From Escherichia phage EP_H11: a stretch of DNA of 64,000 nucleotides. Below, one piece after another: positions 58,115 through 58,263 of the stretch (position 1 is its first letter; each line of letters starts with the position of its first letter). A model generated the notes under the pieces. It did no database searches, was not told the DNA's origin, and worked only from the letters and a program-made list of their open reading frames with translations. Location: sequence record OP688485. One strand, 5' to 3'. The position numbers and the translations under genes are program-made.

Positions 58115-58161
58115 ATCTACCTCTTTGGTTGGTGGTTAGTGCTAGTGTGTCGTCCTGACTA

Positions 58162-58199
58162 AATTTACTTTGACTAATCGAGATATGTCAAAGTAAATT
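58162..58199 (-). other. second, AT-rich hairpin between capsid terminator and next gene
   Basis: 13-bp stem AAATTTACTTTGAC / GTCAAAGTAAATT with 12-nt loop. Confidence 0.45.
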
Positions 58200-58200
58200 A

Positions 58201-58237
58201 AAACAAGAAAAACTACGGCCTCAATAAGAGGCCGTAG
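58201..58237 (-). terminator. intrinsic terminator downstream of major capsid gene
   Basis: CTACGGCCTC-AATAA-GAGGCCGTAG followed on the minus strand by TTTTTCTTGTTT. Confidence 0.8.
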
Positions 58238-58263
58238 CTAATGCCAACTTAACGCATCAAATC

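Follow-up and report, generated by a model that had tools for sequence, protein, structure and literature searches.

What role do the two hairpins play that lie one behind the other between the major capsid gene of Escherichia phage EP_H11 and the gene that follows it? The stretch of DNA analyzed, referred to here as the window, is 64,000 nt long (sequence record OP688485), and is a 96% relative of Escherichia phage vB_EcoM_IME392, a 116-kb myovirus. A preliminary description of the window had placed two tandem hairpins on the minus strand within 58115-58263. Both were found where it had put them, and its coordinates for the gap are exact, the 149 nt spacer running precisely from the capsid stop codon to the start of the next gene. 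The genes and signals that bound the spacer are:

58264..59691, minus strand: major capsid gene, 475 aa, of the Gp23/T4-type fold family (open reading frame and homology).
58266-58264, minus strand: capsid stop codon, TAA.
58115..58152, minus strand: CA-rich, unstructured leader with a Shine-Dalgarno sequence, GAGG, at 58123-58120 (sequence and folding).
58114-58112, minus strand: start codon of the next gene, ATG.
57386..58114, minus strand: downstream gene, 242 aa, with an acidic, low-complexity middle (open reading frame, syntenic in relatives).

The structural module occupies 27678-64000 on the minus strand, and the remainder of the window (1-27624) holds mostly small plus-strand genes, including the counterpart of the IME392 'putative DNA ligase'. 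Gene order around the spacer is a 525-aa gene, an 88-aa gene, the head maturation protease (478 aa), the capsid gene, the spacer itself and then six ORFs of 242, 178, 95, 209, 187 and 221 aa, with the tail sheath gene further downstream. The capsid protein shares 99% identity with the IME392 'putative major capsid protein' and falls in Pfam PF07068 (Gp23). The 242-aa protein encoded next had no match in PHROGs; at the corresponding position, Acinetobacter phage Ab1-TPeters has a protein annotated as structural, with an Ig domain. When ten neighbouring proteins (five downstream and five upstream) were scanned against PHROGs, the only matches were to the tail sheath, the head maturation protease and a family without known function. 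IME392 is annotated with genes for RNA polymerase beta and beta' subunits, and a 2025 paper (PMC12686479) places it among the RP13-like phages, for which hypermodified thymidine has been proposed. Within the spacer, no small ORF could be read from the sequence beyond a 5-codon TTG frame. The folding energy of the entire spacer is strongly significant (z = -4.4 to -4.6), and of the other late intergenic stretches that were folded only the end-of-module terminator (z = -4.5) is comparably structured, the remainder scoring between +1.1 and -1.9.

Searches of GenBank phages, IMG/VR and JGI metagenomes returned IME392 and distant relatives only; the IMG/VR and JGI metagenome sequences reached just 51–62% capsid identity, and GTDB genomes gave no closer relative. 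A large protein collection contained a 90%-identity cluster of 12 capsid variants, whose contigs yielded a further nine loci in which the spacer is complete. The clade comparison described below is based on 11 sequences of the IME392 clade, the window included. This clade is shallow, with capsid proteins at least 91% identical. Divergence from the window at four-fold synonymous sites of the capsid gene is 8–11% for the IME392-like set (including locus L032), 23% for L036, 35% for L030 and 40% for L035, so the set represents about five informative, independent lineages. Substitutions in the arms, flanks, loop and hexamers were counted by eye. The first hairpin and the tract that follows it are:

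58213..58237, minus strand: hairpin 1, CTACGGCCTC-UUAUU-GAGGCCGUAG in RNA (folding and covariation).
58200..58212, minus strand: U-tract of the putative terminator, UUUUUCUUGUUUU in RNA and TTTTTCTTGTTTT in DNA (sequence).

Hairpin 1 had been described as a GC-rich intrinsic terminator with a U-run, and this was upheld by its canonical anatomy, by compensatory changes in five of its ten pairs and by the presence of a hairpin in distant relatives. It begins 26 nt past the capsid stop codon on the sense strand (as DNA, CTACGGCCTC-TTATT-GAGGCCGTAG at 58237-58213), a position and structure that are conserved. The stem is 10–12 bp long, with 12 pairs when the flanking AG/UU are included (58239-58211), has seven G-C pairs and closes a 5 nt loop; terminators have a GC-rich stem of about 5–14 bp and a loop of 3–8 nt. 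The fold is strong (-22 kcal/mol, z = -7.7), and the U-tract lies immediately 3' of the stem, with 11 of its 13 bases being U, including the first five. Across the 11 clade sequences all cells of the pairing table (100%) are paired even though half of the pairs have changed on both sides, a result equaled by none of 500 shuffles nor by any slid register. L032 has a U-A in place of a G-C pair and a flipped loop, L028 has one G.U pair, and the stems of L030 (AUACCGCCUC/GAGGCGGUAU) and L035 (AUAUGGCCCC/GGGGCCAUAU) are largely different in sequence. The U-run is kept in all 11 members despite the differing stems, including L030, L035 and L032, where the stem sequence has been replaced.

A single strong GC-rich hairpin directly past the capsid stop was present in every distant relative examined for which there is sequence beyond the stop (50–70% capsid identity), among them Acinetobacter phage Ab1-TPeters and Ralstonia phage RP13. 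In these viruses the next gene begins 20–80 nt past the capsid stop, and inspection by eye shows no plain U-run in most of them. Since distant relatives also carry the GC-rich hairpin, a structured end of the capsid cistron is a trait of the family, which in the IME392 clade takes the form of a predicted canonical intrinsic terminator. For hairpin 1 and its U-tract in the window, an intrinsic (factor-independent) terminator is very probable, and we infer that it would attenuate late transcription after the capsid gene. Contig ends were also considered as a possible record of RNA 3' ends. Many contigs do break at hairpin 1, but because the breaks fall on the 5' side of the hairpin they are read as an assembly artefact of palindromes and not as RNA ends.

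The arrangement recalls phage T7, where the terminator T-phi follows capsid gene 10 and partial read-through supplies the downstream structural genes and so sets the stoichiometry. Both have an intrinsic-type hairpin and U-run directly past the most abundant late gene. They differ in that T-phi acts on the single-subunit T7 polymerase, whereas the candidates here are the host polymerase or a phage multisubunit polymerase, and in that T-phi is not known to have a second conserved stem-loop sharing its U-tract, which EP_H11 has:

58162..58199, minus strand: core of hairpin 2, a 13-bp AU-rich stem, AAUUUACUUUGAC / GUCAAAGUAAAUU in RNA, with a 12 nt loop (inverted repeat and folding).

The 13-bp length previously given for this stem is correct, all 13 pairs being perfect in the window; the 5' arm had been given as a 14-mer, AAATTTACTTTGAC, which contains one wrong extra base, and the sequence reads TAATTTACTTTGAC. 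As DNA, the element consists of AATTTACTTTGAC (58199-58187), the loop ATATCTCGATTA and GTCAAAGTAAATT (58174-58162), and it folds with -12.2 kcal/mol (z = -5.4). It is the longest inverted repeat in the 64-kb window. The window holds two perfect inverted repeats of 13 bp or more with a loop of 3–20 nt, hairpin 2 and the terminator that closes the late module, against an average of 0.005 in block-shuffled copies. The element was searched for by its arm motif, by the core TTGAC-N-GTCAA, as a perfect inverted repeat and with a covariance model, and no further copies were found in the window, the whole IME392 genome or the capsid neighbourhoods of distant relatives. Among GTDB genomes, IMG/VR, complete E. 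coli genomes and GenBank phages, IME392 alone gave a match, and in Rfam 15 the only match was to STnc480, on the opposite strand, at 19.5 bits (E = 3.7) against a gathering score of 72. Three candidate functions were rejected at this level: a second terminator (no U-run follows hairpin 2 on either strand), a replication origin (GC skew shows no inflection there) and a repeated operator or promoter (hairpin 2 is single-copy in the window, in the IME392 genome and in the capsid neighbourhoods of relatives).

Hairpin 2 was found in all 11 clade members and was absent from relatives at or below 70% capsid identity. By these comparisons it is a real element, far beyond chance, and one conserved only among close relatives, the IME392 clade. 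Its perfect stem is peculiar to the window. The central pair, C-G in the window, is G-C in L030, L032 and L035, C.C in six sequences and C.U in L036, and since seven of the 11 sequences are thus mismatched in mid-stem, the stem need not be perfect. Of the 13 pairs, ten are invariant, one has changed on both sides, and two have become G.U in L030 through A-to-G changes; almost all of the stem changes observed keep pairing. Formal covariation is weak, as 226 of 500 shuffles were as good, and covariation alone does not prove the stem. What is conserved, judging from the aligned spacers, is mainly the sequence. Counted by eye, L035 differs from the window at 4 of 46 non-loop positions and L030 at 7 of 46, compared to 40% and 35%, respectively, of four-fold sites in the capsid gene, and GTCAAA is invariant across the clade. 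In the loop, L030 and L035 each differ from the window at 5 of 12 positions, a rate comparable to that of four-fold synonymous sites. The sequence conservation of the arms is unlike the pattern seen in hairpin 1, and is more typical of sequence-specific recognition, as by a promoter or protein-binding site.

The predicted structure extends beyond the core, to include parts of the U-tract on one side and of the downstream flank on the other:

58204..58208, minus strand: UCUUG within the U-tract, forming the 5' strand of an outer helix (minimum-energy folds).
58153..58161, minus strand: UAGU, the 3' side of a 4x4 internal loop, and CAGGA (58157-58153), the 3' strand of the outer helix (folds).

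In minimum-energy folds of the isolated element, UCUUG pairs with CAGGA throughout the clade. No member departs from AGTCAGGA, and all keep the C and the G that interrupt the U-tract, two residues that are unnecessary for termination and are precisely those forming the G-C pairs with CAGGA. The predicted helix of the window comprises 5 bp, the 4x4 internal loop (with U-A and U.G oppositions) and the 13 bp core, or 22 positions in total; that of L030 and L035, each of which has lost one base per helix strand, comprises 5 + 4 + 10 bp with two U.U mismatches, or 21 positions. Both of these single-base deletions are in homopolymer runs, where indels are common, and L034 and L032 also vary in the length of the U-run. 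RNase III substrates have about two turns (20–22 bp) of mostly double-stranded RNA, often with an internal loop, and the predicted fold has this form, with a lower helix of only 5 bp.

Whether the palindrome is read as RNA or as DNA can be judged from the changes it has accepted. All non-Watson-Crick purine–pyrimidine oppositions in the clade are G.U on the sense strand and none is A.C, and the sense strand folds better than the antisense in every member (-18.3 versus -13.9 kcal/mol in the window, and -17.4 versus -2.6 in L030). Because the mismatches are G.U on the sense strand and that strand folds better, the folding predictions, although they draw on few independent events, point to an RNA on the late transcript rather than a DNA palindrome. 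Several of these features were not part of the preliminary description, namely that the perfect stem is found only in the window, that the helix reaches into the U-tract, that the element is clade-specific and single-copy, and that the family encodes a multisubunit RNA polymerase.

For hairpin 2 the preliminary description had named a promoter or operator, an RNase site and a translational control element, with no preference among them. Of the functions considered for hairpin 2, RNA processing or stability fits the data best and is the most likely. That it works at the RNA level we would give a little less than an even chance, and the combined explanation, a terminator followed by an RNA element, is put forward somewhat more tentatively still. 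Under this explanation the terminator would end most late transcripts right after the capsid gene, and capsid message would exceed the messages downstream, with the genes for head completion and the tail depending on read-through. Hairpin 2 would act as sense-strand RNA, present only on those transcripts that have read through the terminator. On such RNA, UCUUG of the U-tract would pair with CAGGA to give the AU-rich helix of about 22 positions, and the extended helix may serve as a processing or stability signal, either separating the capsid message from the downstream message or protecting the new ends. Since the helix has the size and shape of an RNase III substrate, RNase III is the candidate enzyme, but processing of the RNase III type at hairpin 2 specifically, for which lambda sib, the rpsO-pnp leader and the T7 R sites offer parallels, is in our estimation unlikely.

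At lambda tI/sib, and at E. coli rpsO t1 with the pnp-leader hairpin, RNase III cuts double-stranded RNA that is present only on read-through transcripts, and alters the stability of the neighbouring message. Both share with the EP_H11 spacer a terminator and a longer helix that needs sequence past the termination point. They differ in that the extended helix of sib is the terminator stem itself, whereas in EP_H11 it is a helix of its own beside the terminator and shares with it only the U-tract, and in that cleavage by RNase III belongs to lambda sib and rpsO-pnp, while the EP_H11 helix is known from its predicted fold and has a lower helix of 5 bp. Phage T7 has about ten intercistronic RNase III sites (R1.1 and others) with common features. 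Like these, the EP_H11 element sits between two cistrons on a long phage transcript, with an internal loop dividing its upper stem from the lower; unlike them, it is single in its genome, has a large loop of 12 nt, and its lower stem is shorter than those of T7.

A more elaborate form of the same idea is that the terminator and hairpin 2 together constitute a lambda-sib-like read-through switch, in which a double-strand-specific nuclease or phage RNA-binding protein recognizes the helix of about 22 positions. Terminated transcripts would then end in a stable hairpin and give long-lived capsid mRNA, cleavage of read-through transcripts would make the fate of the capsid message independent of what happens to the head and tail messages downstream, and a phage with its own multisubunit polymerase and probably hypermodified DNA may favour RNA-level over DNA-level signals. 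In this full form we regard the idea as distinctly unlikely.

The arms of hairpin 2 can also be read as a promoter, an option that had been raised before:

58162..58191, minus strand: sigma70-like hexamers TTGACA (58191-58186) and TAAATT (58167-58162), separated by 18 nt, with 10 of 12 consensus matches.

A promoter at this position would restart transcription for the downstream genes, with the T-run acting like an UP element and the palindrome being either incidental or an overlapping operator. What speaks for it is the match itself: TTGACA-18-TAAATT lies in the arms, its spacing is within the 16–18 nt of sigma70 promoters, it is oriented in the sense direction, and it occupies one of the few real intergenic gaps of the late module. 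All 11 clade members keep TTG in the -35 and TA...T in the -10 hexamer, the positions that matter most to a promoter, the spacer (loop) changes at about the four-fold rate, and the arms are conserved by sequence and not by covariation, all of which a promoter would explain. TAAATT is also of the same TAAAnT class as the -10-like hexamer of the phage motif GGCTGT-TAAAnT. There is a precedent for a terminator and then a promoter past the capsid gene in T4, where the gene 23 terminator precedes the gene 24 late promoter, and regulated sigma70 promoters may have an overlapping palindromic operator. With these the spacer shares a terminator, promoter-like hexamers within an inverted repeat, and a structural gene following; it differs from them in lacking the T4 late motif TATAAATA, in a sigma70 match that is at chance level, and in an atypical spacing of half-sites.

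The match does not exceed chance, however. Matches of at least 10 of 12 number 20 in the window against 18.8 expected, and 25 in the IME392 genome against 32 expected; such matches are scattered through coding sequence as well. The 18 nt spacing is suboptimal, and the match drops to 7/12 in L030 (TTGGCT, TAATTT) and 8/12 in L035. Nor do the hexamers as a whole appear better kept than other parts of the arms, although TTG and TA...T survive; changes counted by eye affect 2 of 12 hexamer positions and 2 of 15 others in L035, and 3 of 12 and 3 of 15 in L030. The opposite strand of hairpin 2 carries a mirror-image TTGACT-18-TAAATT, which as a promoter would yield antisense capsid RNA. A promoter also leaves the invariance of UCUUG and CAGGA unexplained, along with that of GTCAAA; because GTCAAA sits in the would-be spacer, its invariance is explained by pairing or symmetry and not by the hexamers.

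The phage has a strongly conserved promoter-like motif of its own, which is not used at the spacer. A promoter-like cassette, CCGCTCTTTT-N8-10-AAAGGCTGTTAAAnTGT, has a 13 nt core with 29 matches at no more than two mismatches in IME392, about 26 of which have the cassette context; almost all lie upstream of genes on the non-structural strand, and none was found in the late module or capsid spacer. Alignments of hairpin 2 with the region upstream of the capsid gene (p = 0.06), and with the start of the late module and eight other late intergenic regions (p = 0.11–0.97 for these nine), were no better than those of shuffled sequences, so that hairpin 2 is without similarity to other late intergenic regions. 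A shared late-promoter motif was rejected; the shared strings TAGTCAGG and CAGGACG occur at chance frequency. Two of the near-matches fall in coding sequence, and the one in the capsid gene encodes Gly-Gln-Asp-Asp. Finally, the proposed hypermodified thymidine would occupy the major groove of T-rich hexamers, and IME392 has its beta and beta' annotations; we infer that these phage polymerase genes and the proposed base lower the prior for a host-type promoter. On balance, a promoter at hairpin 2 is doubtful.

Hairpin 2 might instead be a DNA palindrome bound by a dimeric phage or host protein, and serve as an operator, as a roadblock behind the terminator, or as a site needed once per genome. 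This would be consistent with arms that are conserved by sequence around a spacer that changes at near the four-fold synonymous rate, with the independent variation of the central position in each arm, as for a half-site base that is not contacted, and with the uniqueness of the element in the genome. It is opposed by the geometry, as the half-site centres are 25 bp apart (about 2.4 turns) in place of the usual separation of about 10–11 or 21 bp, and by the changes in L030, which break the DNA symmetry but keep G.U pairing in the sense RNA, with antisense folds that are much worse. There is no second copy and therefore no regulon, no regulator was recognized among the ten neighbouring proteins scanned against PHROGs, the lack of a GC-skew turning point speaks against a replication origin, and the element has no resemblance to host or other-phage sequences. 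We consider a protein-bound DNA palindrome to be quite improbable.

Alternatively, hairpin 2 could be a relic without function, for example of a duplication or insertion at a homing-endonuclease hot spot, whose decay has yet to set in because the clade is shallow. In L005, L016, L017 and RP13, HNH endonuclease genes occupy this very position, and the restriction of hairpin 2 to one shallow clade, the central mismatch tolerated by most members and the weak covariation would also be expected of a relic. Decay is difficult to reconcile with arms and flanks that change several-fold less than the four-fold sites of the adjacent, codon-biased capsid gene, the loop changing at about the neutral rate; nearly all stem changes keep pairing. 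A relic is very unlikely.

The last possibility concerns translation. Direct translational control by hairpin 2, as once suggested, is unlikely, the Shine-Dalgarno sequence being about 40 nt downstream in the unstructured, CA-rich leader. A related proposal makes the spacer a translational-coupling domain, in which the capsid gene tail AACUUCUCUGGU pairs with the Shine-Dalgarno region (ACCAAAGAGGU) of the gene downstream; the two hairpins would only compact the 149 nt in between, and ribosomes finishing the capsid gene (tail AACUUCUC) would unmask the next ribosome-binding site. RNAalifold does close the domain with such a helix, the Shine-Dalgarno sequence is predicted to be paired to the capsid tail with a probability of 0.7–1.0 in 5 of 6 distinct sequences, and the duplex (-12.4 kcal/mol) is in the top 0.4–2% of capsid-gene windows for the group that includes the window, but only in the top 7–11% in L030 and L035. 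These predictions make the pairing a borderline case in the clade and a weak lead. With a covariation term of zero, both strands conserved anyway by coding and by Shine-Dalgarno function, a different fold preferred by the IME392 variant, no such pairing in any distant relative, and a downstream gene that is missing from terminated transcripts, a coupling domain is extremely unlikely.

The layout of this spacer is one of ordinary regulation with one clade-specific extra element, and not a new kind of system. A terminator past the capsid gene is a standard phage means of setting the ratio of capsid to other structural proteins, and its confirmation adds little. Hairpin 2 is a clean, conserved single-copy element in the barely studied IME392/EP_H11 relatives of the RP13-like phages. 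Should it prove to be a promoter instead of an RNA element, it would reveal which polymerase serves the tail genes; if it is a processing site on read-through RNA, it would offer a way into the partitioning of late messages in this group.

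Many plus-strand genes of the window have a promoter-like cassette of about 40 nt immediately upstream, with the layout CCGCTCTTTT-N8-10-(T/C)CGAAAGGCTGTTAAAnTGT. This cassette and other elements of the window are as follows.

Repeated cassettes and a hairpin in the window
6046-6085, 13003-13042, 18200-18237, 19595-19634, 22310-22349 and 23385-23424, plus strand: promoter-like cassette (limits approximate)
885-946: promoter-like cassette, partial copy
1020-1075 and 4518-4575, plus strand: second repeated cassette
27639-27675: 13-bp GC-containing hairpin, AAATGGGACTCAT...ATGAGTCCCATTT, with T-runs

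A search of the related myovirus IME392 (MH719082) with the 13-nt core of the promoter-like cassette, allowing up to two mismatches, returned 29 matches; the cassette context is present in about 26 of these, and nearly all are carried by the non-structural strand. At 61215 of IME392, a degenerate copy is oriented towards the beginning of the late module. The 3' half of the cassette is similar to an extended -10 element (TGn + TAAAnT), and a phage-specific upstream box takes the place of the -35 element. Judged by its sequence, the cassette resembles an activator-dependent 'middle' promoter; alternatively, the phage's own polymerase may use it as its promoter. The second repeated cassette combines TTATTTTTCAAATAAACGAnTTnTGAAC with a GAACGGG...CCCGTTC hairpin after it and then a T-run. 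It is present in about five copies in IME392, where AT-rich palindromes at 14077, 23006 and 45308 are composed of its words. The hairpin at 27639-27675 occupies the point of convergence between the plus-strand and the minus-strand gene blocks, and is probably a terminator, acting in both directions, at the end of the late module.

Two further features concern the spacer between the major capsid gene and the next gene.

Features at the capsid gene and its spacer
58267-58281 with 58117-58128, minus strand: complementary pair, last capsid codons and Shine-Dalgarno region of the next gene
L005, L016 and L017 (distant relatives), after the capsid stop, and L042 (RP13), 249-992: HNH homing-endonuclease insertions

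The final capsid codons (AACUUCUCUGGU) and the Shine-Dalgarno region in front of the next gene (ACCAAAGAGGU) are complementary, with a pairing energy of -12.4 kcal/mol. The significance of this complementarity is borderline within the clade, and it was absent when looked for in distant relatives. In several of the latter, an HNH homing-endonuclease gene lies precisely in the interval that separates the capsid gene from its downstream neighbour, and since these genes are inserted at the same point, the spacer is a recurrent insertion site. The gene 3' of the spacer (57386-58114 in the window, with counterparts in L028-L036 of the IME392 clade) ranges from 151 to 252 codons across the clade because its acidic, low-complexity middle varies, while its N-terminus is conserved within the clade. 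In Acinetobacter phage Ab1-TPeters, the gene at the equivalent position carries the annotation of an Ig-domain structural protein.

In L032 (approximately 2950-2980), the loop of hairpin 1, the intrinsic terminator after the capsid stop, is AATAA, the reverse complement of the TTATT of the window, and is accompanied by a compensatory change in the stem. From the sequence, this looks like a loop flip via intrastrand template switching at the palindrome. Inspection of contig ends (L004, L007-L011, L014, L025, L026 and L037) revealed that many metagenomic contigs end on the 5' side of hairpin 1 or no more than a few bases from the capsid stop; in one, the end is the 3' base of the second stem-loop of the spacer (hairpin 2). 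We read these ends as assembly breaks at palindromes rather than RNA ends.

Outside the window, the 16457-21418 region of IME392 is annotated as split RNA polymerase beta and beta' genes, and IME392 has been placed among the RP13-like phages, for which hypermodified thymidine is proposed (PMC12686479). The polymerase genes and the proposed hypermodified thymidine bear on the interpretation of any DNA-level signal in the window.
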